Shown piece after piece: positions 26,958 through 47,523 of a stretch of DNA of 64,000 nucleotides (position 1 is the stretch's first letter; the number at the start of each line of letters is the position of its first letter). The position numbers and the translations under genes are program-made. Source of the stretch: a virus; IMG/VR virus record IMGVR_UViG_3300047323_000545; one strand, written 5' to 3'. The notes below the pieces were generated by a model. The model did no database searches. It was not told where the DNA came from and saw only the letters and a list, made by a program, of their open reading frames with translations.

Positions 26958-27042
26958 CACTCAACCCCCGGGAAGGGGGAACCCGGGGGTTGAGGCTGGC
27001 GGCCGGAGAACGGAGCCGCAGAGGGCCCACCACAAACCCTCT
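26958..27042 (-). ncRNA. Candidate small three-hairpin RNA
   Basis: Lies between a late-promoter copy (27043-27077) and a perfect 13-bp hairpin (26960-26994); pyrimidine-rich loops CCGUUCUCC and UUCCCCCUU. Confidence 0.45.
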
Positions 27043-27077
27043 TCACCCCCTATGGATGGAGGCGGCCCGGGAGACAG
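27043..27077 (-). promoter_or_regulatory. Putative late promoter (CTGTC-N21-AGGGGGTGA)
   Basis: Motif copy with no credible ORF before the next hairpin. Confidence 0.65.
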
Positions 27078-27199
27078 TGACTGTGGCCGAAATTCTCTCC
27101 CGATGACAGAATTACGGATGGTGGGGTTCCAACTACCGCGCGAATGTGTCAAGGTGAGAATATGTCACCCCGCCAGACGACACACCGAGCGCACGCCCG

Positions 27200-27368
27200 G
27201 CGGTGACCCTGGTCCCCCTTCGGGGGCCAGGGCTCACGACGGTCCCGACCGCCCGCCCACAGGTCGGAGGCCATGAGCCTATGGCGGCGCCCCCGAAGCC
27301 TGTGGGCATGACGGAGGCCCCCTCTGGTCCGTCCTAGGGATCAGAGGGGGCCTTCGTCGATCATGCCA
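27200..27368 (+). ncRNA. Candidate plus-strand structured RNA
   Basis: cUUCGg-capped stem at about 27203-27237 and a long G-U-containing stem at 27305-27367. Confidence 0.35.
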
Positions 27369-27543
27369 GACCCAGGAGCTTCAGGAGATCCTCGCGGCTG
27401 GCCGGAGGTGGCACCAGGTCCTCCTGCTTCAGGACCACGAACGGGATGTCCTTCTCACGGGAAAACGAAGATGGGCCCGCCGCCTTGTTGGCGACGAGCC
27501 CACCTATCTGCCCTGGTCAGGTGCTATACAGACACCCAGCCAC

Positions 27544-28530
27544 CTAGGACTTAACGATCTTGGCCAAACCCCTGGGGTTCAAGATCAACATGGATACCAT
27601 CTCGTCGAAGACCCAGCCCTTCCAGAAGGACTCGACTCGGTGGTTTTCCTCGACGTCCAGCGAGTACAGGACCGGGAAGACACCCAGGAACTGCGGGTCC
27701 GGCGTCAGGAAGATCGTGTTCTGGGGGATGACGATCGAGCGCTGGATCTGGAACTCGCCGAACGAGGTGATCGTCTCGCCCGCGACGACGCGGTCCTTGA
27801 ACGCCCAGCCGGTCTGGTTGATGTCCCACCGGTACATGTCCCGGTAGTCCATCGGGTTGATGAGGATGCGGCTGGACTGCAGCTCGTGCATGTCCGTCAT
27901 GGAGACGGCCGAGTACAGCGAGCCCGGGGTCAGGTAGCCGCTGGCTTCCGTGATGACGTGGTTCGGGGTGACCGTGTGGTCGGCCCGGCCCGCGTAGTCG
28001 GAGATGGCGGCCTGCAGGATGGTGACGAGGCGGCTGTCCTCCTGCTTGAGGATGGCCTGCTTGGTCTCGTCCTGGGCCTGCTCGACCGCGTTGATGCGGA
28101 GGTAGAGCAGGTCTTCCTTGCGGATGGCCGGGCGCGAGGCGATGCGGAAGAAGCGCACCTGGATGCGCTTGCCTTCGAACGGCGTGATGCGGACTTCGCC
28201 GTCCGTGCCGGACATGATGTACGCCTGTCCGAGGTCGTCCCAGACGTCGTACTCGACCGGGGTACCGGGGGTGCAGGGGTCCTCGACGAGGACGTTGCGG
28301 GTGATGCCCTGGTATCGGAGCTTCAACTGGATCGGGCCGATCATGCCCACGCCGAGGCGCTTGATCCCGTTGACGGAGTCGGAGGCGACGGCCTGGAGGC
28401 GCTGGCGCTTGGCCTCGAAGGAGAGCGGCTGGTTGCCACGAGACTCGCGACGGGCGAGGATCTCGGAGACGTAGTCGTCCGACTTCTTCGCGGTGCGAAC
28501 GTGGCCGGTGGCGGCGGGCGCTGCGGTCAT
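27544..28530 (-). CDS. Major capsid protein
   Basis: 328 aa from MTAAPAAT; HK97-type C-terminus (GWVFDEMVSMLILNPRGLAKI); follows scaffold and decoration genes; very strong codon bias. Confidence 0.88.
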   Translation of the reverse strand: MTAAPAATGHVRTAKKSDDYVSEILARRESRGNQPLSFEAKRQRLQAVASDSVNGIKRLGVGMIGPIQLKLRYQGITRNVLVEDPCTPGTPVEYDVWDDLGQAYIMSGTDGEVRITPFEGKRIQVRFFRIASRPAIRKEDLLYLRINAVEQAQDETKQAILKQEDSRLVTILQAAISDYAGRADHTVTPNHVITEASGYLTPGSLYSAVSMTDMHELQSSRILINPMDYRDMYRWDINQTGWAFKDRVVAGETITSFGEFQIQRSIVIPQNTIFLTPDPQFLGVFPVLYSLDVEENHRVESFWKGWVFDEMVSMLILNPRGLAKIVKS

Positions 28531-28564
28531 GGTGAGTTGAGTCCTCTCGCTCGGCTCGGGCGCG

Positions 28565-29077
28565 TTAGCGCAGGCCGCCGATGGTGATCTTGGACGGGGA
28601 GTTGACCTTGAGCAGGCGGCCGACCGGCAGCGCGGAGATCGCGGTGGCGACAGCGCCGTTGGTGGCGAGCGCGAGCTTGCCTCGGCCCGTACCGGCGGTG
28701 ATCGCGTAGACGAGCTTCTCGGTGGTGCCGTTGGGCTCGGTCCAGGTCTGGGTGTCGTCGAACGCGGGTGAGAGGACCTCGAACTGAGCGTCCGAGCCCA
28801 TGACCCACACGGAGGTGGCGTTGACGCCGACGTCGAGCATCGGGTCGAAGCCGTCGCCGCCGACGTAGTCACCGGCGAGGCCGTAGGGGACGCCGGAGGC
28901 GCCGATGAGGCTGACCGTCTCGCCTGCGGTCTGCGACAGGACCATCCCGGGCCAGATCGGGATGCTGCGGTCCCACGCCGGGTCCAGGAACACGGACGCG
29001 GGGGTTGCCTGGGTCCAGGCGTAAAGCGGGCGCAGGGTGCGCTTGATGTGGGCCAGGTTTGCCCGCACGCGGATCAT
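28565..29077 (-). CDS. Capsid decoration/minor capsid protein
   Basis: 170 aa between scaffold and MCP, with its own late promoter. Confidence 0.7.
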   Translation of the reverse strand: MIRVRANLAHIKRTLRPLYAWTQATPASVFLDPAWDRSIPIWPGMVLSQTAGETVSLIGASGVPYGLAGDYVGGDGFDPMLDVGVNATSVWVMGSDAQFEVLSPAFDDTQTWTEPNGTTEKLVYAITAGTGRGKLALATNGAVATAISALPVGRLLKVNSPSKITIGGLR

Positions 29078-29131
29078 GTGTTCCGCCCTCCAGTGGGTCT
29101 CGGCTGGCCGCCGAGATCCGGCAGGCCGTCT

Positions 29132-29167
29132 TCACCCCCTAGGCGCGGGCAATGGGGGGTGAGACAG
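29132..29167 (-). promoter_or_regulatory. Putative late promoter for the capsid genes
   Basis: CTGTC-N22-AGGGGGTGA. Confidence 0.7.
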
Positions 29168-29196
29168 TGCCCAACGGCAAGGAATTTCTGGGGATA

Positions 29197-29235
29197 TACG
29201 AAAGGGCCCGGCGGAAGCCCGCCGAGCCCTTCGTA
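29197..29235 (-). terminator. Terminator hairpin after the scaffold gene
   Basis: tacgaaagggcccggcgg...ccgccgagcccttcgta. Confidence 0.6.
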
Positions 29236-29244
29236 TTTGGGGGG

Positions 29245-30117
29245 TCAGTCGAACAGGTCGGAGACCTCGTCGGTGCCCGCGAGCGGGGCCGCAGAGGCGG
29301 TCGCGTGGGCCGCCAGGGACGGCGCTACACGCTCTGCGCTGCGGGCCGCGACCCGGGCGCCCGACGGCGCGGTCCGGGCGGAGGCGGCCTTCATGACGCG
29401 GTCCAGGACGCCGATCTCACGGTTGATCAGCTCGTCGGAGAGGCTGGCGTCGGACTCCAGGCGTGCGGACACGGTGAGGTCGTCGCCGCTGGCGATACCG
29501 GCCTGGATCTGCAGGCGGGCCAGGCGCAGGCACGCGTGCGTGCGCGACGGACCACCGCTGGCACCGGCCATCTCACCCGTAGTCACCGGGTTGGAGTTGG
29601 ACTTGTTCTCGCTCATCGTCCAGGGGAAGGCGACGTCCCACTGGGCCGGGTCGCCGACGCGTACGTCGGTTTCGATGCGGGTCTCGTCCAGCGGGACCTC
29701 ACCGGTGTTGACGCCGGAGACCGGGGAGGTGACGTCCTGCAGGTTGCCGTACGGCTCGGCAGGGAGGGTGCCTCCCGGGGTGAGCGCGGTGTCGGTCGCT
29801 GCGGCCGGGACACCGGCGGTGGAGTTGCCGGTCTGGCCCGGGGAGCGGACGTCGTCGTTGGTCTCGGGGGTCGCGGCCTGCTCGGTCGTCTCCGACGGGG
29901 CCTGCTCCGGCCCGTCCGGGATCGGCTGGGCGGGGTTGGCGATGTCGGCCGTCTTGGAGAGGGCTTCGACCTCGCCGGTGACTCCGGCCAGCCGGGCGAT
30001 CAGCGCGATCTGCTTCCCCTGGACGGCGAGCTGCTGAGACTGGGCGGCCAGCTGCTTGCGCTGGTCGTCGATGACCAGCTGCTGGGCGGTCAGCGCTGCC
30101 ATGAGCGGTCGGCTCAT
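29245..30117 (-). CDS. Scaffolding-like protein
   Basis: N-terminal coiled coil, low-complexity middle, ends DEVSDLFD; between protease and capsid genes. Confidence 0.65.
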   Translation of the reverse strand: MSRPLMAALTAQQLVIDDQRKQLAAQSQQLAVQGKQIALIARLAGVTGEVEALSKTADIANPAQPIPDGPEQAPSETTEQAATPETNDDVRSPGQTGNSTAGVPAAATDTALTPGGTLPAEPYGNLQDVTSPVSGVNTGEVPLDETRIETDVRVGDPAQWDVAFPWTMSENKSNSNPVTTGEMAGASGGPSRTHACLRLARLQIQAGIASGDDLTVSARLESDASLSDELINREIGVLDRVMKAASARTAPSGARVAARSAERVAPSLAAHATASAAPLAGTDEVSDLFD

Positions 30118-30181
30118 ACTGGACACTCCTTCAAAGCCTGTGGCGCTCACGACGGCTGCCGTGGGCGGGGTCTTCACTGCT

Positions 30182-33100
30182 TCAGGTGCGCGGGAGCTGC
30201 GGGACAGCAGGCGGGGGGACAGAAGACTTGCCCTGCAGTTCTGCGGGGGTCAGCAGCTGCGCCTTGTTGCAGTTCGGGCAGACGTCCCCGGCGACGATGC
30301 CGTCGGTCGCGCCTGCCGCGTTGCCCATGTCCTGGGTCTGCGGTGCGGTCGCGTCCGCTCCGAACCCGCAGTGCAGGCAGTTCAGGTCCGGCACGCCGTC
30401 GCTGGGCTGGCCGTCCTTCGGCGTGCGCGGGGCCATCACGCTGAAGCGTCGGCGACGTGGGTCGTCCGGCTCCTCGGCCTGCTCCGGTCCCGGAGCCTCG
30501 TCGGACACGTCCCGGTTCCAGGACCAGTGCGGCGTCTCACTCTCGTCGCCGGTGTAGTCGCCGGGGTGCGCCAGGATCGGCTCCTGCGGAGACCCCATAC
30601 CGGGGCCCTGGAAGCCACTGTCGTCATCGTCTTCCTGCAGGCCGCCTTCGGGACCCTCAGGCCCCTGCATACGCGGCATGTCAGGGCCGGGGGTGAACGG
30701 GTCTCCCATGCGGTCCGTGGCGCGGCCGGGCAGCTCGCGCGGGCCTGCCTGGCCGCCCTGTTCCGGGTCGACCAACTGCGGCTGGGCGTTGACGTTGCCG
30801 TCCGGGTCGATCTCGTCCGGCTGGATCATGCCGTCGCCGTTGCGGTCGGAGACGGCCGGGCCCATCTGCTGGGTGCCGTCGAGCGCCTGGTCGCCGAACG
30901 GGGACGGCGGCAGGCCGTTCTCGTCGAGCTGGTCGGGGTCGACCATCTGCGGGTCGTCCTCGTCCAGCGGCTGCCCGTCGGGGCCCAACTGCTCCTCGCC
31001 GGGCTCCTCGCCCTGCTGCGGCATGCCGGTGCCGTCGTCGTTGACGCGCTGCAGTTCGCCGTTGTTGTCGACCAGGGAGGGGTCGACGATCTGCTTGCGC
31101 AGGTCGAGCTGCTTGGCCTTGTCCAGGTCCGGGTCGCGGAACTGCTCCGGCGGGTTGATGAACCCGCAGATCTGGCACTGGATCCCGTCGAAGGTGTCCT
31201 TGTCGCCGCAGACCGGGCAGTTCTCCTCGCGGAGCGTGTCGACGTCGGCCGGGGCCTTGATCTCCCCGTACGCCAGCGCGCTGATGGATCCATCGGCGTT
31301 GATCATGACGGCGTCAACCACCTTCGCCACGTGGGAGTTGCCCTGCTCCTTCAGCTCCGGCGCGTGCTCGCCCGCAAAGCCCTTCCAGTGGCCCTTGATG
31401 TTCTCCTCGGCCTTGTTACGCCCCGCGCCCAGGTTCTTGGCGCTGGCGTTCGCGTTGGCCTGGTCCTCGGCGGTGTTGAGGCGCTGGCGCACCAGCCAGG
31501 TCACGGCCTGCACCTGGTGTGCGGCGACCGGCTTGCCCTCCTTCTCGGAGATGGCGGCGGCGGCGTTGCGGTAGGTGTTGGCGGCGTGCTCGTAGTAGTG
31601 CCGGGCGTGCTTGCCGCTCTGGGCGCCAGGGAAGCCCTGGTGGGCGTCGTTCTCGACGTCGGTGATCCGGCGCCCGGCCGCCACGGACAGTGCGTGCCGG
31701 TCGACGACCACCCGGCCGGACAGCCGACGCTCGGCGCCGGACTTCTTCTCCTCGTCGGTCTGCGGTTCGTAGCCGCCGTGCTCGATGAGGTGCGCGAAGT
31801 CCTGGGTCTTCGGTGCCTTCAGGACCGGCTGGTGGTGCTCGCCGTCCATGATGCGCTGCGCCTTGTCGGCGTGCATGCCCATGGTGACGGTGTGCGCGGG
31901 CTTGTCCGGGTCGTCCTTGAGCGGCCGGACGGCCGCCTGCCGGTGGAAGGAGTGGGCCGCGTTGAACATGTTCATCGGCCAGTTGGTGCGCGGGCTGTAG
32001 GCCGACAGGACACCGGCGCCCTTGTGGGCGGCCTCTTCGTCGGTCTTGATGCTGGGGTCGAGCTTGGCGATGGCCTTGGCGACGTGGTGGGCGTCGCTGT
32101 ACCAGCGCATGCCCGAGTCCTTCTCCTCTGGCGTGGCCTGGTCCCAGTGCTTGACGATGTGGTCGTGGTGCAGCGGGACTTGCTTGTACCAGGGGTGGTC
32201 TCCGGCGGGCTCGTACGGCTGGCCGCGCTTCGGCTTCGGGGTGCCGTACTCGTCCAGTTCGGGCTCGGCCGCCTTCGGCGCGGGCTTCTTCGCAGCCGCC
32301 ATGGCCTCCAGCGCGGCGGTACGGCGGCGGCCGAACAGCTTCTGCTGCTCCCACTGCGGTGCGGCCGGAGCGGGAGCCTGGGCGCGCGTGCGGGACTTGG
32401 TGGTGCGCTGCCTTGGCGCGGGCTCGGCGCCGTGGAACGGGCCCTTGGAGCCGTCGCCGAACGGGGTACGCGGGTGCGGCGAGTGGGCGACGTAGGCAGG
32501 TACCGAGTCCATGCGGCGCTCGTACGCGGCCTGGGCGCGGTGGTGGCCGTCAGCAACCTGGTAGACGCCGTGGCGGTGCACCAGCACCAGCGGCGGCACC
32601 TTCTCCGGGTTCTCGGCGTAGCCCCGGCTGGCGTTCTCGACGCGGCCGTCGCCGCCGCCATGGTGCTTGAAGTCGATGTGCTGGGGGTTGATGTGCTGCA
32701 GGTGGAACTCCAGGCTGTGCACATCGGAGGACTCGTCGTGCGGGTCGTCGGGCCGGTTGTGGGCCAGGTGGTTGGCGGCCCAACCGATGCCCTCGCCGTC
32801 GGCGCCCTCAGCGGCCTCGCCGTGGTACTCGGGGTCGCCGTAGACGTGAGGGTGCCGCTCGCCGATCTCGTCCCACGAGAACGGGCCGGTGCTGTTGGCC
32901 TCCACCTGCAGGGCGTTGAGGCTCGGCTTCAGCGGCGTGAAGGGCTTCGAGTGCGACACCGCGTCCTCGCGGCGCTGCCGGTTCTCCGTGGTGCCCTCGA
33001 ACGGGACGTGCGGCACGGCGGGCTTGGCGTGGGAGACGGGGTGGGCGGGCTTCGGCTGGGGTGTCGCGTCCTCGCCGTCGTCGTCGCCCTCCAGGTCGTC

Positions 33101-33808
33101 GTGGTCCTCGAACTGGGAGTAGTCGGTCGCGGCCGTCTTCGAGGCGGCCTTGCCGAGGCCGGAGGTGTCCACGCCGAGGAAGTGCGCGGTGGGGTCGGCC
33201 GGGGGCTCGACGAGCACCGAGTTCTCGAAGAAGCGCAGGCCGAAGCAGGTCTCGCGGACCAGCTCGCCGACCTTCTTTCCGCCCGCCGTGGCGCGGAAGA
33301 TCCGCTTGCCCTTCAGATGGGGGATGTGGGAGCAGTAGTCGGCCGGGGTGCGGGCCTCGTTGCCGCAGGCGGAGCACACGGAGCGCTCGACGTCGCAGCC
33401 CATGGAGGTCCGGTCGATATGTCCGGCCAGGATCGCCTTGGCCAGCTTGGGGAACCGGGTGGCGTCGATCTCCATGAGGACTTCGGCCCAGGTGTCCGGC
33501 GAGCCGTCGGGGTTGCGGTCCTGGTGAAGGGCGGCGTCGATGATCACGCCTCGGGCACGCCGGTGGTTGTCATTGACGTGGTTCACGAAGACCGGCTTGC
33601 CGACGAACGTCTTGTACGACGCCGCGATCTCCTCGGCAGGAAACTCGTCGAAATTGTCGTTGCAGCGTGAACTGATCGCCCTGCTGCGTACGTACAAGTA
33701 GCCGGGGCGAGCCTCGTACTGGAACACCGCACGGTGGGCCGCCTTGGTGACGCGCTGCTGGTCGCCGAGGCTGGCGGCGATGATCTGGGCCGTGGCGAAC
33801 TTCAGCAC
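30182..33808 (-). CDS. Giant multidomain prohead protease (protease + ParB/Srx + HhH-glycosylase-like + Zn ribbons)
   Basis: GTG after GGAGG (VLKFATA). Protease motifs GKPVFVNH, TSMGC, FFENSVLVEPPADPTA; VADGHHR; GMRWY/SPR/PKT/VDRH/QAVTW; CPVC-CQIC and CLHC-CPNC. Confidence 0.8.
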   Translation of the reverse strand: MLKFATAQIIAASLGDQQRVTKAAHRAVFQYEARPGYLYVRSRAISSRCNDNFDEFPAEEIAASYKTFVGKPVFVNHVNDNHRRARGVIIDAALHQDRNPDGSPDTWAEVLMEIDATRFPKLAKAILAGHIDRTSMGCDVERSVCSACGNEARTPADYCSHIPHLKGKRIFRATAGGKKVGELVRETCFGLRFFENSVLVEPPADPTAHFLGVDTSGLGKAASKTAATDYSQFEDHDDLEGDDDGEDATPQPKPAHPVSHAKPAVPHVPFEGTTENRQRREDAVSHSKPFTPLKPSLNALQVEANSTGPFSWDEIGERHPHVYGDPEYHGEAAEGADGEGIGWAANHLAHNRPDDPHDESSDVHSLEFHLQHINPQHIDFKHHGGGDGRVENASRGYAENPEKVPPLVLVHRHGVYQVADGHHRAQAAYERRMDSVPAYVAHSPHPRTPFGDGSKGPFHGAEPAPRQRTTKSRTRAQAPAPAAPQWEQQKLFGRRRTAALEAMAAAKKPAPKAAEPELDEYGTPKPKRGQPYEPAGDHPWYKQVPLHHDHIVKHWDQATPEEKDSGMRWYSDAHHVAKAIAKLDPSIKTDEEAAHKGAGVLSAYSPRTNWPMNMFNAAHSFHRQAAVRPLKDDPDKPAHTVTMGMHADKAQRIMDGEHHQPVLKAPKTQDFAHLIEHGGYEPQTDEEKKSGAERRLSGRVVVDRHALSVAAGRRITDVENDAHQGFPGAQSGKHARHYYEHAANTYRNAAAAISEKEGKPVAAHQVQAVTWLVRQRLNTAEDQANANASAKNLGAGRNKAEENIKGHWKGFAGEHAPELKEQGNSHVAKVVDAVMINADGSISALAYGEIKAPADVDTLREENCPVCGDKDTFDGIQCQICGFINPPEQFRDPDLDKAKQLDLRKQIVDPSLVDNNGELQRVNDDGTGMPQQGEEPGEEQLGPDGQPLDEDDPQMVDPDQLDENGLPPSPFGDQALDGTQQMGPAVSDRNGDGMIQPDEIDPDGNVNAQPQLVDPEQGGQAGPRELPGRATDRMGDPFTPGPDMPRMQGPEGPEGGLQEDDDDSGFQGPGMGSPQEPILAHPGDYTGDESETPHWSWNRDVSDEAPGPEQAEEPDDPRRRRFSVMAPRTPKDGQPSDGVPDLNCLHCGFGADATAPQTQDMGNAAGATDGIVAGDVCPNCNKAQLLTPAELQGKSSVPPPAVPQLPRT

Positions 33809-33848
33809 ACCGGGTCCTCCTGTGCGGGCGGCGGCGCCTGGTGCGCCC

Positions 33849-33883
33849 TCGCCCCTTGGGGGTGGACGGGGTGTGGCGAACAG
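33849..33883 (-). promoter_or_regulatory. Putative late promoter
   Basis: CTGTT-N21-AAGGGGCGA. Confidence 0.7.
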
Positions 33884-34121
33884 GAGGGCAACCTGGGAGC
33901 CGTCGGTGGCAACAGATTGGAGAAGGAGGTGTGTAGACCTCATGAAGGGGAGAACCGATGGCCAGTGGTTCGGCACAATGCGAGATAAGGTCTCCGCTTG
34001 TCAGCCGAAGCGGAGGGTCCTCTTCCTCGCTTTGGCGACAAATAGACTTATTCTAAATTTACCGATACCGTTCATCCGGCGCGTCGTTGAACGATGCGAC
34101 GTCCCGCAGACGACATGCAGA

Positions 34122-34168
34122 GAGCCCCGGCCGACCTTCCTGGCAAGGAATCGGGTCGGCCGGGGCTC
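34122..34168. terminator. Strong hairpin downstream of the holin
   Basis: gagccccggccgacc...ggtcggccggggctc. Confidence 0.65.
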
Positions 34169-34200
34169 GGCTCCGGTCTACGTCAGCGGTAGATGGCGGT

Positions 34201-34503
34201 CTACGGCCGGTCTTCCGGAGTGGGATCCGACGTGGCGGTCGCCGGATCGGGGGTGCTGGCCTTGCGGTGCCGTCCCGTGTAGGTCGGCCTGGCAGTGGAG
34301 CCGAGGAGTAGCCCCGCGAGCGGCCAGCGTGACTGAAGCAGGTGGGCGAGCGTGTAGTACGCGGCGCCGAGGACCACGGTCAGCAGGCCGGTGAGGTTCT
34401 GCGTGAACTCGGCGCTGGCGTGGACGTTGTGCGAGGCGAGGAACGCCAGGACGAAGCCGACAGCCATCGGAACGACCGTACGGACAAGAGCGGGAGTAGG
34501 CAC
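34201..34503 (-). CDS. Putative holin
   Basis: ALVRTVVPMAVG...AAYYTLAHLLQSRWPLAGLLLG..PTY, typical of actinophage holins; two TMs. Confidence 0.72.
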   Translation of the reverse strand: MPTPALVRTVVPMAVGFVLAFLASHNVHASAEFTQNLTGLLTVVLGAAYYTLAHLLQSRWPLAGLLLGSTARPTYTGRHRKASTPDPATATSDPTPEDRP

Positions 34504-34529
34504 CTGAACTCCTTGGGCCAGGGGATGCT

Positions 34530-34564
34530 TCGCCCCTTGACGGCCCGCAGGTACGCCCGGACAG
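34530..34564 (-). promoter_or_regulatory. Putative late promoter
   Basis: CTGTC-N21-AAGGGGCGA. Confidence 0.72.
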
Positions 34565-34802
34565 CACCGGGCCCCGGGGATTCGGGCGGCCGTCACGGCT
34601 GTGCTCATGATGGATCGCCTCCCCCGTCAGCTCGTGTCTGTCAGTTTGCTGAGCTGATCGTATGACGCCGGGTGGTACTGGTGTCAACTTTCCATGCACC
34701 TCGGCTTGTTCTGAGCACCCGGGTGTATGGAAACCATGCATCGGCGCTAGGATCCAGGCATGGGTCAATTTTTTTCATCTCGACATAGGGAGGGGGGACC
34801 CG

Positions 34803-35378
34803 ATGCCTCTAGGTCGCAAGTTCCGCCAGCTGCATGCCTTGAAGCTCAGCCCTGATGGCAAGAAGTACGACATCAGTGTGATCGCCCGCGAGGCTTCAAG
34901 GTTGTACCGCGAGGAGAAAATTCTGCGGACGACCCAGGAGCTTCAGGCTGCCGGTGTCAGTATGAAGGAAATCGCACAGGCGTGCGAGACGATTCGCGCC
35001 GAGCCCGACGTGATCAACCGCCTGTACCTGTCTGAAGTGCGCGACGGCAAGAAGCGGGATGTGAAGTGGGGGGTCGTCGAGGCCCTCAGTCTCTTCTTCC
35101 GTGTCGAGACGGACTTCTGGCGCATCGGTGCCGACGCTACGGACAAGACGCGCAGGATCGAGAAGGAAGTGGAACTTATCCAGCTCGGCTTGCAGGTGGC
35201 CAAGGCCGCCCAGGCGCTCGATAAGCCTACGGACGGTGACCAAGAGAGCACGCAGGGCATGGAGTTGATCGGGGCCCTGCTGCGTGGAGGCCAAGAGAAG
35301 GACCCCGCGCAGGTGGAGAGCATCTTCCGCGTGGCCCTGATGGCCCTACAAGCGGCCCCCGAAGCAGAGACCGGATAG
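34803..35378 (+). CDS. HTH (Xre/EspR-like) DNA-binding protein
   Basis: INRLYLSEVRDGKKRDVKWGVVEALSLFFRVETDFW; GGAGG SD. Confidence 0.72.
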   Translation: MPLGRKFRQLHALKLSPDGKKYDISVIAREASRLYREEKILRTTQELQAAGVSMKEIAQACETIRAEPDVINRLYLSEVRDGKKRDVKWGVVEALSLFFRVETDFWRIGADATDKTRRIEKEVELIQLGLQVAKAAQALDKPTDGDQESTQGMELIGALLRGGQEKDPAQVESIFRVALMALQAAPEAETG

Positions 35379-35437
35379 CTCCATTGTCAGCCCCGTGCCT
35401 TACGCTGAGTGGCGTCAAGAGGCAGACTCGGTGATCA

Positions 35438-35995
35438 ATGGGGGCTTGGATGGGTGTGATGCGGAACCGGCGTGGCCTGAAGGGGACTTGGGACCAAGCA
35501 TTGACGAGGCTGGTGCTCCCCGCGTCTCCCTGGACGGCCGAGGACCTGCTGCGCGCGTACGTGGAGCAGGTGCGCGGTCGCAAGCTCATCCTCAGTCGCG
35601 ATCCAGTGGTGGCCTCGCCGAACGGCCCGAGCGGCATGTGGTTTCCCACGCCGGACACCGACCTCGTCTGGGCCCATCCCGCCATATCGGGCATACCGTA
35701 CAACCACGTCCTGGGGCACGAGCTTGGCCACATGGTCAACGGAGATGAGCCGGACCGACTCAACCTCACCAGCATCGTGCGCCTCTTGATGGGGGCCTGC
35801 ACCAGTACATCGGGCCTCCTCGCGGACGCCCTCTCCTCCGCCGGAGTCCTGTGCCGCGCCGACGGCACGAGCAGTGAGGACCGCGAACGGAAGGCCGAGA
35901 AATTCGGCTACTTCGCCGAGGGCTGGCTGGCCCAGAACGCCCCCCGCAAGGCCACCCTCCTGGAGGCGAATGTGCGAGAGAGCCTCGCCCTCTGA
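35438..35995 (+). CDS. ImmA/IrrE-like zinc metallopeptidase-fold protein
   Basis: PSGMWF...NHVLGHELGHM...ERKAEKFG (HExxH plus distal E). Confidence 0.8.
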   Translation: MGAWMGVMRNRRGLKGTWDQALTRLVLPASPWTAEDLLRAYVEQVRGRKLILSRDPVVASPNGPSGMWFPTPDTDLVWAHPAISGIPYNHVLGHELGHMVNGDEPDRLNLTSIVRLLMGACTSTSGLLADALSSAGVLCRADGTSSEDRERKAEKFGYFAEGWLAQNAPRKATLLEANVRESLAL

Positions 35996-36010
35996 CCGAG
36001 ATGAGTAACG

Positions 36011-37285
36011 GTGACCGCCACACCTGACCTGCCCGCCTGGATAGCCAGCATCCTCCTGACTCTGGAAGTCCTGAGGCGTCTCCCTGCCGCGCTCCGCAAC
36101 TCACGCAGCCGCCCTCTCTGGATCTTCTTCTTCGCCCTCGACATGGCGATGCTGGCGAAGATCCAGAGCGTTGGGGACTTCCTGTACGAGACCACCGGCG
36201 TAGACGACGTCGCCGTCCTGACCAAACACATCTTCGGGATCGCTGCCGTCGCCGGACTCCTGCGCTGGGTCACCAACGTCGTACCCGGCCGCATGGACGG
36301 CAGACGCGAGCCCCGCTACCGGATGGTCATCAGCAGCAACCCCCGGCGCATCGTGAGCTGGCTCTTCGTCGTCGCGGTGGTCGCCCTCTTTCCGATGGCA
36401 CAGCGGCGTACCGGCAACCAAGAGGACTCGGACTTCATCTTCGTCCAGGCCGGGCACTTCTGGGGCAGTCTGCAGATGCTGCTCTTCTACGCCTACCTGG
36501 TCTTCGGCCTGGTCTGCGCCTCCCTGACCTGTTCCGCCACGGCGCGCGAGCCGTCAGCCAAGGGCGCCTTCAAGTACGGCATGCAGGTCATGTCGCTGGG
36601 CTGCTCCTGTGGCTCGTTCTACGGCATCCTGCGCTCTGGCTACCTGATCGTCCGCCTCTTCAACAAACCGTTCCTCGGCGGCGACCAGTTCGTGAACGTC
36701 ACCTCCGACTTCGCCCTCGTCAGCGCAGTCCTCCTCATCGTCGGAGGCGCGGCGGCCCCGAAGCTGGAGCGCATAGACCACCTCATCAAGGCCCACGCCG
36801 CCATCAACGACCTGCGCCCGCTGTGGCTCACCCTGACCCGGGCAGTCCCCGAGGTGATCTACGACGACCAGGTCCCCCACCGCCGTCCCACCCGCACCCG
36901 CGATCTTCTGGACCGCCTGTACGACTTCTGGAACTGGAAGCACCTCGACCTGCGCCTGCGTAAGCGGATCCAGGAGATCCACGACGCCTCTCTCCACCTC
37001 GCCCCCTACGTGCCCACCGACCTGCGCGGGCGCGCCGAGACGGTCACTCGCGAACTTGGCCTGCCTTCGTACGTGGTGACCGCCTACCTCCTCCACACCG
37101 CCATCCGGCGCAAGAAGGATCACGAGGAGCCCTGCAGTGGTCAGTGCGAGTGCGAGGTCATCCTGCAGGCGACGGAGGACCTGTTCACCAGCACCTCGAA
37201 GCTGCTGCCGGTCGGGCACGCCATGCAGAACCCGCTTCAGATGGGCCTGATCAACCGGCGATTCACAGCGGCCGTGCACGCATAA
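36011..37285 (+). CDS. MAB_1171c-family multi-pass membrane protein
   Basis: About 7 TMs followed by LRPLWLTLTRAVPEV...LRKRIQEIHDASLHLAPY. Confidence 0.8.
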   Translation: MTATPDLPAWIASILLTLEVLRRLPAALRNSRSRPLWIFFFALDMAMLAKIQSVGDFLYETTGVDDVAVLTKHIFGIAAVAGLLRWVTNVVPGRMDGRREPRYRMVISSNPRRIVSWLFVVAVVALFPMAQRRTGNQEDSDFIFVQAGHFWGSLQMLLFYAYLVFGLVCASLTCSATAREPSAKGAFKYGMQVMSLGCSCGSFYGILRSGYLIVRLFNKPFLGGDQFVNVTSDFALVSAVLLIVGGAAAPKLERIDHLIKAHAAINDLRPLWLTLTRAVPEVIYDDQVPHRRPTRTRDLLDRLYDFWNWKHLDLRLRKRIQEIHDASLHLAPYVPTDLRGRAETVTRELGLPSYVVTAYLLHTAIRRKKDHEEPCSGQCECEVILQATEDLFTSTSKLLPVGHAMQNPLQMGLINRRFTAAVHA

Positions 37286-37287
37286 CG

Positions 37288-37326
37288 CCGTTGAGCCGCC
37301 TTTCAACGGAAAGACGGCTCAACGGT
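37288..37326. terminator. Bidirectional terminator
   Basis: ccgttgagccg...cggctcaacgg followed by a T-run, between convergent genes. Confidence 0.75.
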
Positions 37327-37337
37327 TTTCAGTTTTT

Positions 37338-37760
37338 TCATCCAGTGAGCAGCATCTGCAGGGCCGCCGTCGTCTCCTCCGGAGTCAGCGGCTGGCCCGA
37401 AGCGATCTTCTCCCGCAGCTGCGCCTGCGCCTTCTGCTCGTCCGTCATGCCGTAGTACGGGTCCGGCCTGTGCGTGGCCAGCACCTGCTTCACGGCCGCC
37501 AGGTCCGCCGAGGACGGCGTGACGTACAGCGTGATCGGGGTCTGCGCGCCGACCGGGACCGGCTCGCCCTCGTCGTCGAGCGGGAAGAAGGCCGCGAGCC
37601 GGACGTCCGGGCCGAGCGCCTCGGTGACCTCGTCCTGCAGCTGGCCGATCTGCAGGTCACGGGGCCAGGTGAAGCGCTGGCTGTCTCCTCGGAAGGGGCA
37701 CTTCGGGTCGCTGCCGTCGGCCGCCGTCTCAGCGGGGATCGGCTCGGCCACGTCGTCCAT
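37338..37760 (-). CDS. Hypothetical protein
   Basis: ATG overlaps the upstream stop (TGATG). Confidence 0.65.
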   Translation of the reverse strand: MDDVAEPIPAETAADGSDPKCPFRGDSQRFTWPRDLQIGQLQDEVTEALGPDVRLAAFFPLDDEGEPVPVGAQTPITLYVTPSSADLAAVKQVLATHRPDPYYGMTDEQKAQAQLREKIASGQPLTPEETTAALQMLLTG

Positions 37761-39979
37761 CAGTCCAGCCATGTGGTGTCATCCTCCTGTGCCGCCAGGA
37801 CGTGCTCCAGGTCGGCGTAGTGGGTCCCCTTGATGTCCAGGCGGTCGAGGTTCGCCGCCCGCACCCCCTCACCCTCGTTGATCAGCGCCTGCTGCTCAGC
37901 GAGAGAGAAGTCCTTCAGCGCCTGCCGCTTGAGGCCCGCCGTCATCGACGGCGTCAGGTCCGACGCCTCATCCGTCGGCACCGCCCCGTCCGTCGAGGGC
38001 AGCGCACCCTCCGGCTCGTCGTGCAGCTCCGCCTCCGTGCCGCCGGGCTCGAACAGCGCCGCCTCCAGACCCCCGTGGGCGTACGACTGCAGCGGCAGCT
38101 GCCGGTTCCAGCCCGCCGGGTCCCCGCCCGCGAGCGGTCCGGCCGACGCCGGGTTCTCCCAGGGCCTCTTCGGCGCCGTGGCTCCCGGCGCCTTGGGCAG
38201 CAGGTACGACGTCCCCGACGGCTCCCCGAACGGCGCGTCGGCATTGGCCAGCGGCCGGATGCCCGCCACGCTCAAGGCCAGCAGCAGCTCCTCCTGGTCC
38301 TCACCGGCGACCACGGTCGCACGGGCGACGACCGACATGGGCGCCTGCTGCAGGGAAGCGTGAGCGGCATGGCCGCCGGGAAAGTCGTGACGCTGGTGCT
38401 CCCAGAGGTGGTCGAAGAGGCCGTCGCCCTTGAACGTCCGGAAGTCCTCGTCGGGCGTGTTCATGTTCTTCCAAGAGACGCCCTTGAGGTGCACCCCGGC
38501 CCCAGGGTGGAGCGGGATCTCACTCTCGCCGTGGTCGTGGTAGCCGTAGATCATTCCGTCGGACTGGTCCGGGTCCTCGTCGATCGCGTGCCGGTCAGGC
38601 TTCTCCGCGTGGAAGACGACCGACGTGGGGTGAGTGCCGTGCCGGTTCGGGCGATCGTCCATCTCGCCGAAGGACTCGGCCACGCCGTGGTTGTCCGTCC
38701 AGTGGCGTCCCAGGCCCTCACTGCCCCGGGCCAGGTCGCTGTGCGGGAGTGACTTCATCAGGTGCTGGGCGCGCTCGTGCATCGGGCGGGACTCGTCGTG
38801 GACGATCGCGTGATCCTCGGGGCGCAGATGGACGTTGACGCCCCGGTGGATATCGCCAAGACCTTCGTGGATGCTGTCCCACTCGTTCGACTTCCGCTGC
38901 TTCTCCGCAAAGTAGTCGTGGTCGCCGTGTTCTTCGGCGTCCATGTCCCACATGGACGGCTCGGGGGCGTCCCACGAGGAGAGCTTGCGAGCGGTCGCCG
39001 GGGCGAGCCGGTTGGTGTCGGCGTCGATGTCGTAGCGGACGACGACATGGCGGGGTACCCAGGTGGGCTTGTGCTCGTCGGCGTTGACGTCGCGGCCGAA
39101 CATGCCCCTCGACTGGGCCTCGTACTGCAGGGCCAGCGCGTGGGAGCACATGCGCCCGGCGAACCGGCTGAAGTCGTCGTCGGCGCCCCAGTGGTAGGCG
39201 CCCCACTTGCAGCCGCAGGACCAAGAGTGCGCGGCCACCTTGCCCGGCATGCGCTGCAGGCCGGTCTCGTAGACGTGGTGGTCGCCCTTGACCTCGGCGT
39301 AGACCAGGCCGTCGGAGGCGAGGGTGACGCGCAGGCGGCCCTCGGAGCGGATCCGCTTGGCCTTGGCCACCACGTCGCGCCAGGCGGCCGTGATGTGGAA
39401 GCGGAAGTCGGTGTCAGCGGCGGCCGTCACGACCAGGTCGGAGAAGAGGGCGGACGCCTTCTTGGCCCACGGCGGCGCGTCGTCGTCGCCGTCGCTGGAG
39501 TCGTAGTCATCCTTGTCGTCGGAGTCGTCGTCCGAGTCCTTGGAGTCGTTTTCTCCGGAGTCGTCGTCGTTCTCCGAGTCGTCCGAATCCGGCTCGTCGC
39601 TGTCGCTGTCGGCAAAGGGGTTCTTGCCCGCCGTGACGAACTGGCGGGCCGGGTCCGGGCGCTCGACGAGGATCTGGGACAGCTCCGGGTAGTCGACGGC
39701 CGCCGTCTGCTCCATGGCCTCGGCGGTGATCGGCGCCGGGCTGAGCTGGGAGGCCGTGTACCGGCCGCCACCCAGACCTCGGTCCAGCACGACCTCGTAC
39801 TCCTCGGAGCCGGGGAAGGGGCCGTCCTCGACGTGCTTGACGACGCCGGTGACACCGTCGATCGTCTGTACCCGCTGCTCGGGCTTGTACTCCCAGTAGT
39901 CCTCGGAGCGCACCGCGAGACGCTGCACGCCCAGGGTCTGGTGCTCCAGGCGCTCGCTGCGCTCGAACTTGCCGCCCAC
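37760..39979 (-). CDS. Multidomain head-associated protein with SWIM Zn finger and ADP-ribosyltransferase-like domain
   Basis: WSCGC...MCSHALAL; IHRG...GLGRHWTD..VAESF...GESEIPLHPG; acidic D/S tract. Confidence 0.7.
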   Translation of the reverse strand: MGGKFERSERLEHQTLGVQRLAVRSEDYWEYKPEQRVQTIDGVTGVVKHVEDGPFPGSEEYEVVLDRGLGGGRYTASQLSPAPITAEAMEQTAAVDYPELSQILVERPDPARQFVTAGKNPFADSDSDEPDSDDSENDDDSGENDSKDSDDDSDDKDDYDSSDGDDDAPPWAKKASALFSDLVVTAAADTDFRFHITAAWRDVVAKAKRIRSEGRLRVTLASDGLVYAEVKGDHHVYETGLQRMPGKVAAHSWSCGCKWGAYHWGADDDFSRFAGRMCSHALALQYEAQSRGMFGRDVNADEHKPTWVPRHVVVRYDIDADTNRLAPATARKLSSWDAPEPSMWDMDAEEHGDHDYFAEKQRKSNEWDSIHEGLGDIHRGVNVHLRPEDHAIVHDESRPMHERAQHLMKSLPHSDLARGSEGLGRHWTDNHGVAESFGEMDDRPNRHGTHPTSVVFHAEKPDRHAIDEDPDQSDGMIYGYHDHGESEIPLHPGAGVHLKGVSWKNMNTPDEDFRTFKGDGLFDHLWEHQRHDFPGGHAAHASLQQAPMSVVARATVVAGEDQEELLLALSVAGIRPLANADAPFGEPSGTSYLLPKAPGATAPKRPWENPASAGPLAGGDPAGWNRQLPLQSYAHGGLEAALFEPGGTEAELHDEPEGALPSTDGAVPTDEASDLTPSMTAGLKRQALKDFSLAEQQALINEGEGVRAANLDRLDIKGTHYADLEHVLAAQEDDTTWLD

Positions 39980-40007
39980 CGGCGCCTCCCTCAACGACCG
40001 AAACCCT

Positions 40008-40042
40008 TCAGCCCTTGGGGGTCGCTGCCGGTGGGGCGACAG
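40008..40042 (-). promoter_or_regulatory. Putative late promoter
   Basis: CTGTC-N21-AAGGGCTGA. Confidence 0.68.
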
Positions 40043-40052
40043 CAAGGGGCAT

Positions 40053-40421
40053 TCAGTGGAAGACGGCGAACAGAGAGATGGCGGCGATGATCAGGGAGAT
40101 GCCTGGGATGATGCCCTTGTAGAGGAAGTCGCGGCGGCCTTGCTGGCGGGAGCGCTCCTCTTCGGAGCGGGAGCGCGCCTCTTCGGACGCTTCCTCCTCC
40201 AGCTTCTTCACCGCCTCTTCCAGGTGGTCGACGCGCTGCTGCAGGAGACGCTTTTCTGCTTCGAAGTGATCGCGGGTAACGAAGCCGTCCAGGCGCTTCT
40301 TGACGTCGTTCAGCTCCTGCTTGATCTGCCCGTATGTCAGGCTGACGCGTTCGCGAGTGTTGTCCGAGTCACGCTCGATCAGCCGCCACAGCTCCCCGAT
40401 GCTCTGGGGTTCGGTCGTCAT
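40053..40421 (-). CDS. Coiled-coil protein with C-terminal TM (lysis accessory)
   Basis: MTTEPQSIGELWR...GIIPGISLIIAAISLFAVFH; next to the endolysins. Confidence 0.65.
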   Translation of the reverse strand: MTTEPQSIGELWRLIERDSDNTRERVSLTYGQIKQELNDVKKRLDGFVTRDHFEAEKRLLQQRVDHLEEAVKKLEEEASEEARSRSEEERSRQQGRRDFLYKGIIPGISLIIAAISLFAVFH

Positions 40422-40450
40422 GGGCGCAACTCCTAGGTGGGGGTGGGTCC

Positions 40451-40486
40451 TCACCCCTTGGCGGCAGTGCTCAGTGGTCCAGACAG
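40451..40486 (-). promoter_or_regulatory. Putative late promoter
   Basis: CTGTC-N22-AAGGGGTGA. Confidence 0.72.
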
Positions 40487-40537
40487 GGCGAAGGCCCGGA
40501 TTGCGGACGATCACAATCCGGGCCTTCACTGTGGGTG

Positions 40538-41413
40538 TTACTTCTTGCGCAGACCGTTGGCGACCTCGAAGGCGTACTGCCAGGTCTTCGGGCCGCACAG
40601 GCCGTCGGCCGGGCCGAGCGCCGACAGGTAGTGCTGCTGCAGCGCCTTGACCTTCTTCAGGTCGATGGATGACATCGTCTCGGACGGGCCGACGGCGTAC
40701 TCCGGGCCCCAGTTGCCCTTGTCGAGCCACTTCTGCAGCTGCAGGGCGTACTTGTTCCTCGCGCCGAGCCTGAAGTACTCACGGCCGGGGAAGGCCGGGC
40801 ACTTCGGGGTGCTCGGGGTCGGCTTGCTCGGCGTGGGCGGAGTCGGCGGCTTGGGAGCGACCGGGGCCGACCAGCGCCAGGAGGCGACCGCCTTGCCGCC
40901 GCGCGGGTCGGCAGGGTCGGCCGTGGGCGGGCAGACGCCGTCGGGGAAGTGCGGGGCGAAGTATCCGGCGACCTTGGTGGCGCGGCGGGCGGTGACGTGG
41001 GACCAGACGCCGTTGCCCTGGCCGTTGTCCTCGGACCCGGTCTTGATCGAGTTCCCGCCCTTGGTGTACACCCAGGTCTCGTCGAAGCCGACGACGATCT
41101 CAGTGTGCGCGCCGTTCGAGAAGTCGACGAGCGCTCCCACCGAGGGGTACTCGGACCACAGGCCGTGCTGCTTGGCGTAGGCCGCCATGGCCGCCACGGA
41201 GGCTGTCTTGGGCACGATCGCATCGAGGCCGACGTCGTGGAACATGTCCCAGTCGAAGATCATGCACCACGCGACGCCGTCCCAGCCGTACTCCTTGCCG
41301 AACGGGGTGTGGTTGTCCCAGCCCTCGACGGAGTTCCAGGTCTCGTAGATCTTCTCGGGTATGGACTGGACGTGGTCGACGAGGCGGCGCCAGTCGGGGG
41401 TCGAATCGGTCAC
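40538..41413 (-). CDS. Endolysin, CHAP-like domain + Pro linker + peptidoglycan-binding domain
   Basis: VAWCMIF...HTEIV...KGGNS; PAFPG..F...LQKWL...ADGLCGPKTW. Confidence 0.85.
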   Translation of the reverse strand: MTDSTPDWRRLVDHVQSIPEKIYETWNSVEGWDNHTPFGKEYGWDGVAWCMIFDWDMFHDVGLDAIVPKTASVAAMAAYAKQHGLWSEYPSVGALVDFSNGAHTEIVVGFDETWVYTKGGNSIKTGSEDNGQGNGVWSHVTARRATKVAGYFAPHFPDGVCPPTADPADPRGGKAVASWRWSAPVAPKPPTPPTPSKPTPSTPKCPAFPGREYFRLGARNKYALQLQKWLDKGNWGPEYAVGPSETMSSIDLKKVKALQQHYLSALGPADGLCGPKTWQYAFEVANGLRKK

Positions 41414-45200: not shown

Positions 45201-45325
45201 CGCCGGTCGGCGATCTCCCCGCTGTTGGTGAGCACGCCGACGAGCTGCAGCCGAACCGTTCCGCTGCGGGGATTGCCCGAGCCGTCCGTGTAGGTCCGCG
45301 TGACCGGAACCAGCGTGAATGTCAT
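42290..45325 (-). CDS. Fibre/spike with two tandem pectate-lyase-like beta-helix domains
   Basis: Two NVK..GAKGDG.TDD..AIQAAI.A...YFPAG.Y motifs, each followed by parallel beta-helix repeats. Confidence 0.85.
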   Translation of the reverse strand: MTFTLVPVTRTYTDGSGNPRSGTVRLQLVGVLTNSGEIADRRPYTATLDSLGKISLSVQATNDPDTLPVGGGTYEVTETLSGLATATYFIAVPYDGGTVDLATAPRLAEALAPGIFFQPVNTRGLPNGYAGLDGSGRVPLDQLPANLGTGGGSATPISGDNTDIQALGTRAAGASGKAADAQHVHQMPLLHQVGLPTASIPLNGQRITGAADGVNPQDYATVAQLGGSALAWYNVKDKLYGAKGDGATDDRAAIQAAIDACPSGGIVYFPAGVYRTSATLKPKPGVVLQGVHSSLMSGPGLTDPPSYIQPLASFTGTALLTYQDQTTGGYSSLAAEHRLQDIMLDGSTLDGTKPVDGIYAAGNVQNLVMRNVTIRKMSNNGIVTAGVSNVFPYSWRLHSVMVDNCRGNGMLLNRMTDITLDDCQVIGCWATGFILNNIANSTLLGCRSEWNGNYGYYITGSWGNGAGSGGAVMSACSTDRNGWDGVRVDATGNGPLTIGELVTRRDGRNGGSGGANYAGLSLVGSTMPVVVSGLTCYPGVDDNGSGTNSPQYGVRLSGASNVQLDIAYLHADAQGLYDDGTNTAVTIGATVTTATGPTTAPVRATRPSLAVDWLNVKKYNAKGDGVTDDAPAIQAAINAASAAGGGTLYFPAGRYILNASLTWASGVNAIGAGARVSILQSTNQTLDCITGTDISGVTLQALQLSGPGRGYGSGVRFTRFSAPSTANISLRDMLIQSFGGDGVFCHELASSTLHRVRVRTCGGLGFHLRSPQDTVLGGTSTSLISCSAEGNVTGGFWLDGMAYTTLNACSASNTPAGYRLDNCLAVNITGSGAEQCTTGLIIYGGNGTVVSGFYTEASDGTSVWLTNATSGAILSGVVEASPGSGATTCLRADAGTYGTALGLIAVKPNALNGTVNLLGQGDGSVTLAGRTVVPATGTGARMGTVVLVGGTATVNTTAIGAGSVVMLTTQAPGGTVGTPYVSARTAGTSFAVTSTSASDTSTVGWRILDPS

Positions 45326-47505: not shown

Positions 47506-47523
47506 GAATCCTCCTGTGGTGGC

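Follow-up and report, generated by a model that had tools for sequence, protein, structure and literature searches.

We analysed a stretch of 64,000 nucleotides of viral DNA (IMG/VR record IMGVR_UViG_3300047323_000545; the window below) and in particular one gene on its minus strand, at positions 30182–33808, which encodes a protein of 1208 residues and lies among genes for the virion head. The protein is predicted to join a capsid maturation protease, a ParB/sulfiredoxin (Srx) fold and a domain of family DUF7178 in one polypeptide, and we consider it probable that a head maturation protease has here expanded into a polyvalent polyprotein of protease, cargo and scaffold-like parts, which places DNA-acting enzymes in the capsid. 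The analysis supports two new points: a fold and candidate active-site assignment for DUF7178, and a slot for modular cargo within the head proteases of this phage lineage. The gene and its parts are laid out as follows, from the ribosome-binding site to the C-terminus.

33816–33821, minus strand: Shine-Dalgarno sequence AGGAGG, read from the sequence, 7 nt 5′ of the GTG start
30182–33808, minus strand: whole gene of the putative protease–cargo polyprotein (P0001), 1208 codons plus stop, no internal stop
33137–33721, minus strand: predicted prohead (capsid maturation) serine protease domain, residues 30–224, from the fold and phrog_18299
32921–33136, minus strand: linker 1, residues 225–296, acidic, Pro-rich, predicted to be disordered (predicted local distance difference test, pLDDT, <50)
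32468–32920, minus strand: predicted ParB/Srx-fold module, residues 297–447, a helical N-terminal part and an Srx-like core, with DGHHR at 420–424
32174–32467, minus strand: linker 2, residues 448–545, basic, Pro/Ala-rich, poorly conserved
31439–32173, minus strand: DUF7178 domain, predicted HhH-GPD glycosylase fold, residues 546–790, from Pfam PF23802 (E 3.7e-28) and the model
31103–31285, minus strand: lineage-wide segment AYGEIKAP..VDTLREE...PDLDKAKQLD, residues 842–902, from BLASTP and conservation
30404–31102, minus strand: acidic Asp/Glu/Pro/Gln/Gly-rich low-complexity tail, residues 903–1135, weakly conserved
30185–30403, minus strand: conserved C-terminal zinc ribbon, residues 1136–1208, with CxxC at 1144 and 1177

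That the open reading frame (ORF) is real, far beyond chance, is confirmed by 658 homologues of the whole protein, 99–40% identical and mostly from Streptomyces, and by 540 clusters of DUF7178 domains. Its GC content at third codon positions is 0.92 in a window of 68% GC, a typical coding value. From stop to stop the frame extends to 34000 and offers an alternative GTG upstream at 33976; we prefer the GTG at 33808, at which the homologues also start, because the AGGAGG before it is correctly spaced. The motifs picked out by a previous model reading of the letters and their translations (the sequence-only reading) are all present, namely NH at residues 76–77, TSMG at 134–137, ENSVLVEPPADP at 195–206 and DGHHR at 420–424, followed by GMRWY (566–570), AYSPR (603–607), KAPKT (664–668), VVVDRHA (700–706) and QVQAVTW (765–771), and the segments into which it had divided the protein agree with the folded domains found here (30–224, 297–447 and 546–790). 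The zinc ribbons it described can be recognised in four CxxC motifs forming two zinc-ribbon-like elements (864/878 and 1144/1177), and its acidic Gln/Pro tail in residues 903–1135, which hold 53 Asp/Glu against 15 Lys/Arg. Its argument from size, by which prohead proteases usually have about 200–300 residues, stands in part: the protease relative in the jumbo Dickeya phage AD1 is an ordinary protein of 259 residues, whereas 895–1211 residues are normal in the actinophage lineage to which the protein belongs. Because the AD1 relative is ordinary, the expansion of the protease appears specific to the actinophages, and since such lengths are usual among them, the novelty lies not in length by itself but in what fills the slot. 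Searches with the whole protein gave no match among all PDB sequences (phmmer) and, in NCBIfam, nothing beyond the partition ParB family TIGR00180, below its cut-off (14.6 bits against 58.45).

Two template-free AlphaFold2 models were built on alignments of natural homologues, one of residues 1–480 and one of residues 530–800. The first shows two confident domains (30–224 and 297–447) joined by a disordered linker. The protease domain (pLDDT about 90) is matched at the sequence level by the head maturation protease family phrog_18299 (E 1.8e-23), and its sequence relatives include genes of jumbo phages annotated as ‘prohead core protease’. Compared with solved structures by VIA, it resembles T4 gp21 (PDB ID: 5jbl; Z 9.9, root-mean-square deviation (rmsd) 2.7 over 126 residues) and the herpesvirus assemblins (VZV Z 8.6, HCMV 6.6, KSHV 5.7), and Foldseek likewise returns gp21 (probability 0.97) and herpes proteases. 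Ser135 (33404–33406) is invariant and His77 (33578–33580) is kept in at least 90% of sequences across the Streptomyces homologues and three actinophages; hhalign pairs the two with gp21 H85 and S140, which we take to be the catalytic residues of that enzyme, in an alignment that is itself weak (E 0.18). The model and the searches of solved structures thus bear out the protease named in the sequence-only reading, and support residues 30–224 as a protease of the T4 gp21/herpes assemblin type at the level of the predicted fold. The domain carries in addition a zinc-knuckle-like insert, C145-x2-C148...C159-x-H161 (about 33320–33380, minus strand), in which C145, C148 and C159 are invariant; the knuckle is kept from the Streptomyces elements to the actinophages Myrna, E3 and Pupper, and could be a structural or regulatory metal site specific to the lineage.

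A similar picture emerges for residues 297–447, whose model has a pLDDT above 90. Foldseek finds human Srx (PDB ID: 1xw4; E 1.7e-4, rmsd 2.8 over 85 columns) and gives a probability of 1.0 to it and to ParB-CDP (PDB ID: 6sdk), SbnI, PadC, Noc and KorB, while VIA ranks Srx (Z 6.6) ahead of the free serine kinase SerK (5.9) and SbnI (5.5). The DGHHR motif, which stands for the phosphate-binding loop with its arginine (GxxR) of the superfamily, is strongly conserved (D420 in 46/53, G421 in 48/55, H422 in 46/55, H423 in 47/56 and R424 in 55/58), and the ParB/Srx-like segment proposed earlier is in this way recovered as a fold. Matches to ParB families in sequence are weak: phrog_1033 is found at E 0.0045, and the 14.6 bits to TIGR00180 come from positions 43–82, a core of about 40 residues. 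We regard the assignment of this region to the ParB/sulfiredoxin fold, as a module of the nucleoside triphosphate-binding type, as supported by the model.

To the third domain Pfam HhH-GPD (PF00730) gives no match. The model of residues 530–800 (pLDDT 89.3) was compared by VIA with 48,161 representative solved chains, and the top 22 (Z 10.8–5.2) all belong to HhH-GPD, among them Ogg2 Tm1821, QNG1/DUF2419, MagIII, Mag1, EndoIII, NTHL1, OGG1, AGOG, MutY, AlkA and ROS1; the next chain, which is unrelated, has Z 4.4. In a second VIA search the best structure was DNA-bound MjOgg (PDB ID: 3knt; Z 11.2, rmsd 3.3, 171/206 residues), followed by Tm1821 (10.8), QNG1/DUF2419 (8.8), MagIII (8.2), AGOG (7.8) and OGG1 (7.8). 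Foldseek alone is weak for this domain (AGOG at E 0.11), and language-model features favour HhH-GPD faintly. Invariant in DUF7178 are Lys667 (31808–31810) and Asp703 (31700–31702), as well as His705, Trp569, Tyr570, Ser605, Pro606, Trp610, Gln767 and Trp771, and the first three of these (K667, D703 and H705) stay invariant in homologues from a cyanophage and a Microbacterium phage. K667 stands at the start of the helix formed by domain residues 137–147, and D703 (domain D174) at the start of the helix 175–182, so that D703-x-H705 opens the next helix but one after that of the lysine. In the minimal members of the family (Microbacterium phage Cece gp22 and cyanophage 9515-10a gp9) the lysine and the aspartate are 19 residues apart, compared with 18 for Lys120 and Asp138 of E. 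coli EndoIII within LPGVGRKT...VDTH; the 1208-residue protein has a 17-residue insertion in this loop, and the G-h-G hairpin of the helix-hairpin-helix (HhH) motif is kept in part (LKxPK). The HhH-type glycosylase suggested from the letters is thus found again as a fold, and the PKT/VDxH pattern on which that suggestion leaned turns out to be the invariant Lys and Asp. The predicted structure supports placing DUF7178 in the HhH-GPD superfamily, closest to Ogg2. A Lys/Asp pair, for which K667 and D703 are the candidates, is characteristic of bifunctional glycosylase/AP-lyases, and our best guess at its chemistry, by analogy, is an Ogg2-like excision of DNA bases with a lyase step.

BLASTP comparison with Myrna gp97 (1211 residues, Mycobacterium), E3 gp77 (895 residues, ‘prohead protease’, Rhodococcus) and Pupper gp94 (1082 residues, ‘capsid maturation protease’, Gordonia) leaves two pieces in common: the protease, 39–45% identical over about 180–215 residues, and a segment of about 55–60 residues with the consensus A(Y/W)GE..AP..VDTLR...PDL..A..D across actinophages (Myrna gp97 600–653, E3 gp77 214–260 and Pupper gp94 522–571; E 3e-7 to 4e-6). 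Between these pieces the three phages carry different things. In E3 gp77 the segment follows the protease directly, which makes an empty slot; in Pupper gp94 a Phage_L5_gp82 domain comes before the segment; and Myrna gp97 has about 390 residues without an assigned domain. In 154 homologues that have both pieces, the distance from protease to segment runs from 108 to 2064 residues, and the slot holds DUF7178 alone in 108, ParB and DUF7178 in 36, ParB alone in eight and neither in two, proportions that are biased, as the set was collected in part with DUF7178 as the query. Some slots add NUDIX, GNAT or DUF6582, and in several homologues NUDIX lies directly N-terminal of DUF7178. A MutY-like layout of glycosylase and NUDIX was considered for these and rejected, the NUDIX being N-terminal of DUF7178 and the NUDIX_4 match below its cut-off. 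The extra domains that had been taken for inserts are therefore modular, present in some homologues and absent from others between the protease and the downstream segment, and the region, to judge from these alignments, is a variable slot of insertable domains.

Conservation within the protein follows the same division: it covers the domains, the 842–902 segment and the C-terminal zinc ribbon, but not the linkers; linker 1 shows no conservation among 32 full-length homologues. The segment is strongly conserved among the Streptomyces homologues, and the copy in this clade holds a CxxC...CxxC zinc ribbon (864–881). T4-like L-x-E motifs were tried as cleavage sites and set aside, being few in the linkers and zero in linker 1; with L-x-E so sparse there, and the LRE of the segment replaced by LRK in E3, no cleavage site can be assigned.

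DUF7178 is also found far from this protease. When grouped at 50% identity, the sequences found with the domain form 540 representative clusters. The domain often lies inside proteins of 1000–2500 residues together with NUDIX, an Arr-like ART (a weak match), a PI3/4-kinase-like region or an alpha/beta hydrolase. For instance, a protein of 1347 residues with DUF7178 and Abhydrolase_8 (8001–12044 of a metagenomic Mu-like locus) comes right after terminase, Portal_Mu and MuF, where packaged effectors are classically encoded. A library of viral structures shows the DUF7178 fold again in proteins that bear the names ART-PolyVal or ‘large polyvalent protein associated domain’. Stand-alone copies of 207 residues, such as Microbacterium phage Cece gp22 (4971–5594), labelled ‘glycosylase’ by its depositors, and cyanophage 9515-10a gp9 (4468–5091), which lies between the genes for a DNA methyltransferase and an RNA polymerase, occur in the early regions of Microbacterium phages of about 190 kb and of T7-like Prochlorococcus podoviruses. 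DUF7178 spans very different phages and hosts, and its placements among early genes and in head modules fit a function needed as DNA enters the cell.

The surroundings of the gene indicate what kind of element carries it. Positions 27000–41000 are 91% identical to pRLB1-9.1 (NZ_CP041653.1), a circular plasmid of 154,158 bp from Streptomyces sp. RLB1-9 and the only close DNA relative of the locus; a megablast search against cultured phages found none that is close. The plasmid is typed ‘non-mobilizable’, its homologue of the 1208-residue protein is named ‘ParB/RepB/Spo0J family partition protein’, and a paper on the strain does not discuss the plasmid as a phage. Many other homologues sit on sequences of 150–158 kb. 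On the grounds of the identity to a plasmid, the size of these relatives and the lack of a close cultured phage, we take the window to be, most probably, part of a large Streptomyces phage-plasmid or plasmid-like prophage of about 150 kb with a myovirus-like virion. Elements of about 150–158 kb with a full myovirus late module occur widely in assemblies of Streptomyces and Kitasatospora and in metagenomes. They appear to form a large group of actinobacterial phage-plasmids, so far undescribed, that are kin of the cluster-C-type mycobacteriophages. A search of the 154-kb plasmid for another head protease gave no S78 or ClpP match; the corresponding S77 search carries no information, its own controls having stayed silent.

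The late module runs on the minus strand in the order portal, tail-spike-like protein and endolysin, a 761-residue protein, the protease fusion, a 310-residue coiled-coil protein, cement and major capsid protein, with tail sheath and baseplate genes further downstream, so that the protease fusion lies in the head module between the portal and major capsid genes. The head genes that bear on it are these.

45322–47523, minus strand: portal, phrog_2833 (E 1.8e-136), upstream of the protease fusion
29245–30177, minus strand: candidate scaffolding protein of 310 residues (P0257), N-terminal coiled coil and low-complexity middle
28565–29077, minus strand: cement protein, PF23968 Phage_cement_3 (E 1e-26)
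lower part of 27544–28872, minus strand: major capsid protein, phrog_2522 major head protein (E 4e-107)

A RefSeq homologue of the major capsid protein is annotated as an HK97-fold major capsid protein. No Pfam or PHROG family matches the 310-residue protein, and it is a candidate scaffold because its gene stands between that of the protease and those of the cement and capsid proteins. It might have split off from an ancestral protease–scaffold protein; the helix region at its C-terminus was compared with the C-terminus of E3 gp77, and homology of the two was not accepted beyond a mere lead, the E-value of 4.5e-5 without composition correction rising to 0.2 with it. The protein of 761 residues (37760–40045, minus strand) occupies the position that Myrna gp96, Pupper gp93 and E3 gp76 have in their genomes; its PHROG matches are all of unknown function and Pfam gives none, and it may be another effector that is packaged. 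The sole block on the plus strand within the head module (34662–37285) consists of small genes followed by 36011–37285, a DUF6545/‘MAB_1171c family putative transporter’, and looks like a moron inserted among the late genes. Elsewhere in the window, 42290–45598 (minus strand) encodes a large tail-spike-like protein with a polysaccharide-deacetylase-like region at its end, and 1–3153 (minus strand) a minor tail protein whose N-terminal part is poly-gamma-glutamate-hydrolase-like.

Taken together, the conserved residues of catalytic type, the head-module context, the modularity of the slot and the presence of DUF7178 in other head modules support the reading of the extra domains as cargo. Under this reading, the protease and tail elements would bring the polyprotein into the core of the procapsid, in the manner of herpesvirus pUL26 or lambda C/Nu3, and once the shell had assembled, the protease would cut the linkers, which are not conserved. 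The ParB-like and glycosylase-like enzymes released in this way would stay in the head and leave it with the DNA at infection. During the first minutes they would act on DNA, and would either protect the incoming genome by excising damaged or modified bases and nicking, or attack the DNA of the host. A ride in the capsid in the service of DNA protection or anti-defence, as the sequence-only reading had imagined it, is consistent with the gene context and with the occurrence of DUF7178 in other head modules and polyvalent proteins.

A number of points weigh against this picture. DUF7178 is the sole Pfam family matched by the whole protein at E ≤ 1, with neither a protease nor a ParBc match, and nothing on DUF7178 was found in the literature library that was searched. 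Z scores of 8–11 are possible by chance for helical models, and the model of DUF7178 is helical. An hmmsearch of all PDB sequences with the DUF7178 profile gave no match, and hhalign gave none between DUF7178 alignments and E. coli EndoIII, alone or with 120 homologues, a comparison that is uninformative because those homologues are all 86–99% identical (an effective sequence number, Neff, of 1.0 for the template). As the profile links to solved glycosylases failed, the HhH-GPD assignment rests on the predicted structure and the motifs; likewise K667 and D703 are put forward as the catalytic Lys and Asp from their position rather than from a superposition, which we hold to be a well-supported inference from the model. 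The presence of the protein in virions, its cleavage and the ejection of its parts are read from the gene context. The assemblin-like peptidases of polyvalent proteins are described as ‘always’ C-terminal (PMC5512222), in contrast to the N-terminal position here, and the acidic tail need not be a scaffold, because a separate candidate scaffold gene (29245–30177) follows.

The packaging of DNA-acting enzymes can be carried further, or replaced. In its strongest form, the protease would be a general loading platform whose slot domains are packed and injected, with DUF7178 as a near-universal base-excision passenger that removes damage or modification inflicted by the host before replication begins; genotoxic Streptomyces metabolites and DNA-modifying defences are candidate sources of such damage. 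We find this generalisation doubtful and offer it tentatively. The extra domains could instead work in assembly, as DNA-binding parts of the core or scaffold that organise or receive the genome or regulate packaging, and are later degraded or inert. The gene's position and its N-terminal protease are as in protease–scaffold fusions, the acidic disordered tail with its conserved terminal elements is scaffold-like, and the binding of nucleic acid or nucleotides is common to the two extra folds, all of which suits such a role; yet the invariant K667, D703 and H705 and the conserved DGHHR exceed what DNA binding needs, the slot also takes NUDIX, GNAT, hydrolase and ART-like domains that have no obvious part in assembly, DUF7178 is a stand-alone early gene in other phages, and E3 gp77 assembles heads with its slot empty. 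We consider a role in assembly unlikely.

The enzyme itself may also have been misread. QNG1 (DUF2419) structures come second in the structural comparison and, with 205–220 residues aligned at Z 8.8, give the longest coverage of the domain, and with the NUDIX domains that directly precede DUF7178 in several homologues and a classic G-h-G hairpin that is kept only in part, one might picture a nucleoside or nucleotide N-glycosidase, the main rival to DNA base excision, that works together with NUDIX on nucleotides which are free or serve in signalling (defence second messengers or modified nucleotides, for example). DNA-bound Ogg2 enzymes match better, however (Z 11.2 and 10.8), the Lys–Asp spacing of 19 is that of DNA glycosylase/lyases, and a ParB-fold domain in the same protein, along with the annotation of Cece gp22 as a glycosylase, points to DNA as well, so that we judge a substrate of this kind quite unlikely. 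That the gene is simply a plasmid partition protein (ParB/RepB/Spo0J) with incidental phage-like features is the name under which NCBI lists the homologues P0003, P0011 and P0019, and it would suit both the ParB/Srx fold and the plasmid state of the element in Streptomyces sp. RLB1-9. The match to TIGR00180 falls far short (14.6 against 58.45 bits), Pfam ParBc gives none, about 70% of the homologues that share the protease and tail lack the ParB module, the gene stands on the late strand between the portal and capsid genes, and no ParA is annotated beside the pRLB1-9.1 homologue, all of which makes a partition protein extremely unlikely.

Whichever way the cargo acts, DUF7178 (540 clusters, with no literature found) gains a fold and candidate catalytic residues, and the modular slot, which has received enzymes by repeated insertion, accounts for the ‘capsid maturation protease’ genes of 900–2500 residues in a whole lineage of large actinobacteriophages; in cluster-C-type actinophages such long protease genes carry annotations, but no explanation of them was found in the literature searched. 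The same holds for proteomics of the E3 prohead protease and of mycobacteriophage I3, for protease–cargo fusions and for capsid-delivered glycosylases, on which nothing relevant was found. If packaging is true, covalent fusion to the protease would be a new route of capsid loading, in place of a targeting peptide or an anchor to MuF or portal, and DUF7178 would be the first capsid-delivered DNA glycosylase known in that literature; if the general loading platform were true as well, it would amount to pre-loaded DNA repair as counter-defence. The slot could also be a natural handle for engineered protein delivery by actinophages.

As for the enzymes, the predicted DUF7178 fold can be compared over about 170 of 206 residues with Ogg2 (MjOgg, PDB ID: 3knt; Tm1821, PDB ID: 3n0u), and with AGOG, OGG1 and EndoIII. 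Its VDxH is the VDTH of EndoIII, and its conserved residues are rich in aromatics; unlike these enzymes, it has altered hairpin glycines, a 17-residue loop insertion and no match to them at the sequence level. As for the architecture, phage polyvalent proteins that are packaged in the capsid, with processing peptidases and ParB-superfamily domains, were surveyed by Iyer et al. 2017 (PMC5512222), who mention no glycosylase domain. Like them, the present protein unites unrelated domains of effector type in one polypeptide encoded among virion genes, with a peptidase thought to do the processing: protease, ParB/Srx and HhH-GPD-fold domains are predicted in a single ORF of the head module. The ParB-superfamily and GNAT themes of that survey (PMC5512222) and its NUDIX neighbours recur here, and the DUF7178 fold is found in ART-PolyVal and large polyvalent protein associated domain (LPD) proteins. 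The ParB module gives no match to Pfam ParB models, including those of the DdrB type, and delivery with the DNA into the recipient cell is suggested by the gene context. In contrast to the proteins of that survey (PMC5512222), this one has the head protease of its own phage at the N-terminus, where it appears to be the anchor.

The closest relatives of the whole arrangement are Myrna gp97, E3 gp77 and Pupper gp94, from large actinobacterial myoviruses, which share a homologous N-terminal protease and the segment and stand in the same gene order as here, with a large upstream protein, the protease fusion, cement and major capsid. By Pfam they contain neither ParB nor DUF7178, and they have no zinc ribbons; compared with these phages, the Streptomyces element is plasmid-borne and apparently temperate, and its protease gene is followed by an additional one for a coiled-coil protein. 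A wider comparison is with precursors that join a protease to a scaffold, namely herpesvirus pUL26 (assemblin, linker and scaffold), lambda C/Nu3 and P2 gpO. The present protein resembles them in its N-terminal protease of predicted assemblin fold, the linker behind it and a C-terminal region that presumably touches the shell, and self-cleavage at linker sites would be expected by analogy. It differs in that theirs carry no enzyme cargo between protease and scaffold, whereas here there is putative cargo, and the role of the tail as scaffold is itself putative.

Cargo of enzymes or anti-restriction proteins that is loaded into proheads, trimmed by the head protease and injected with the DNA is familiar from T4 (IPI–III and Alt), from the inner-body proteins of phiKZ-like phages, which are processed by gp175, and from P1 (Dar/DdrB). 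The packaging of the P1 Dar/DdrB proteins and of T4 Alt is summarised in PMC5512222. The protease described here is, by its predicted fold, in the same family as the gp21-type proteases that process such internal proteins. The cargo of T4, phiKZ and P1, however, consists of separate proteins with short targeting peptides, while in the Streptomyces element it would be fused to the protease itself.

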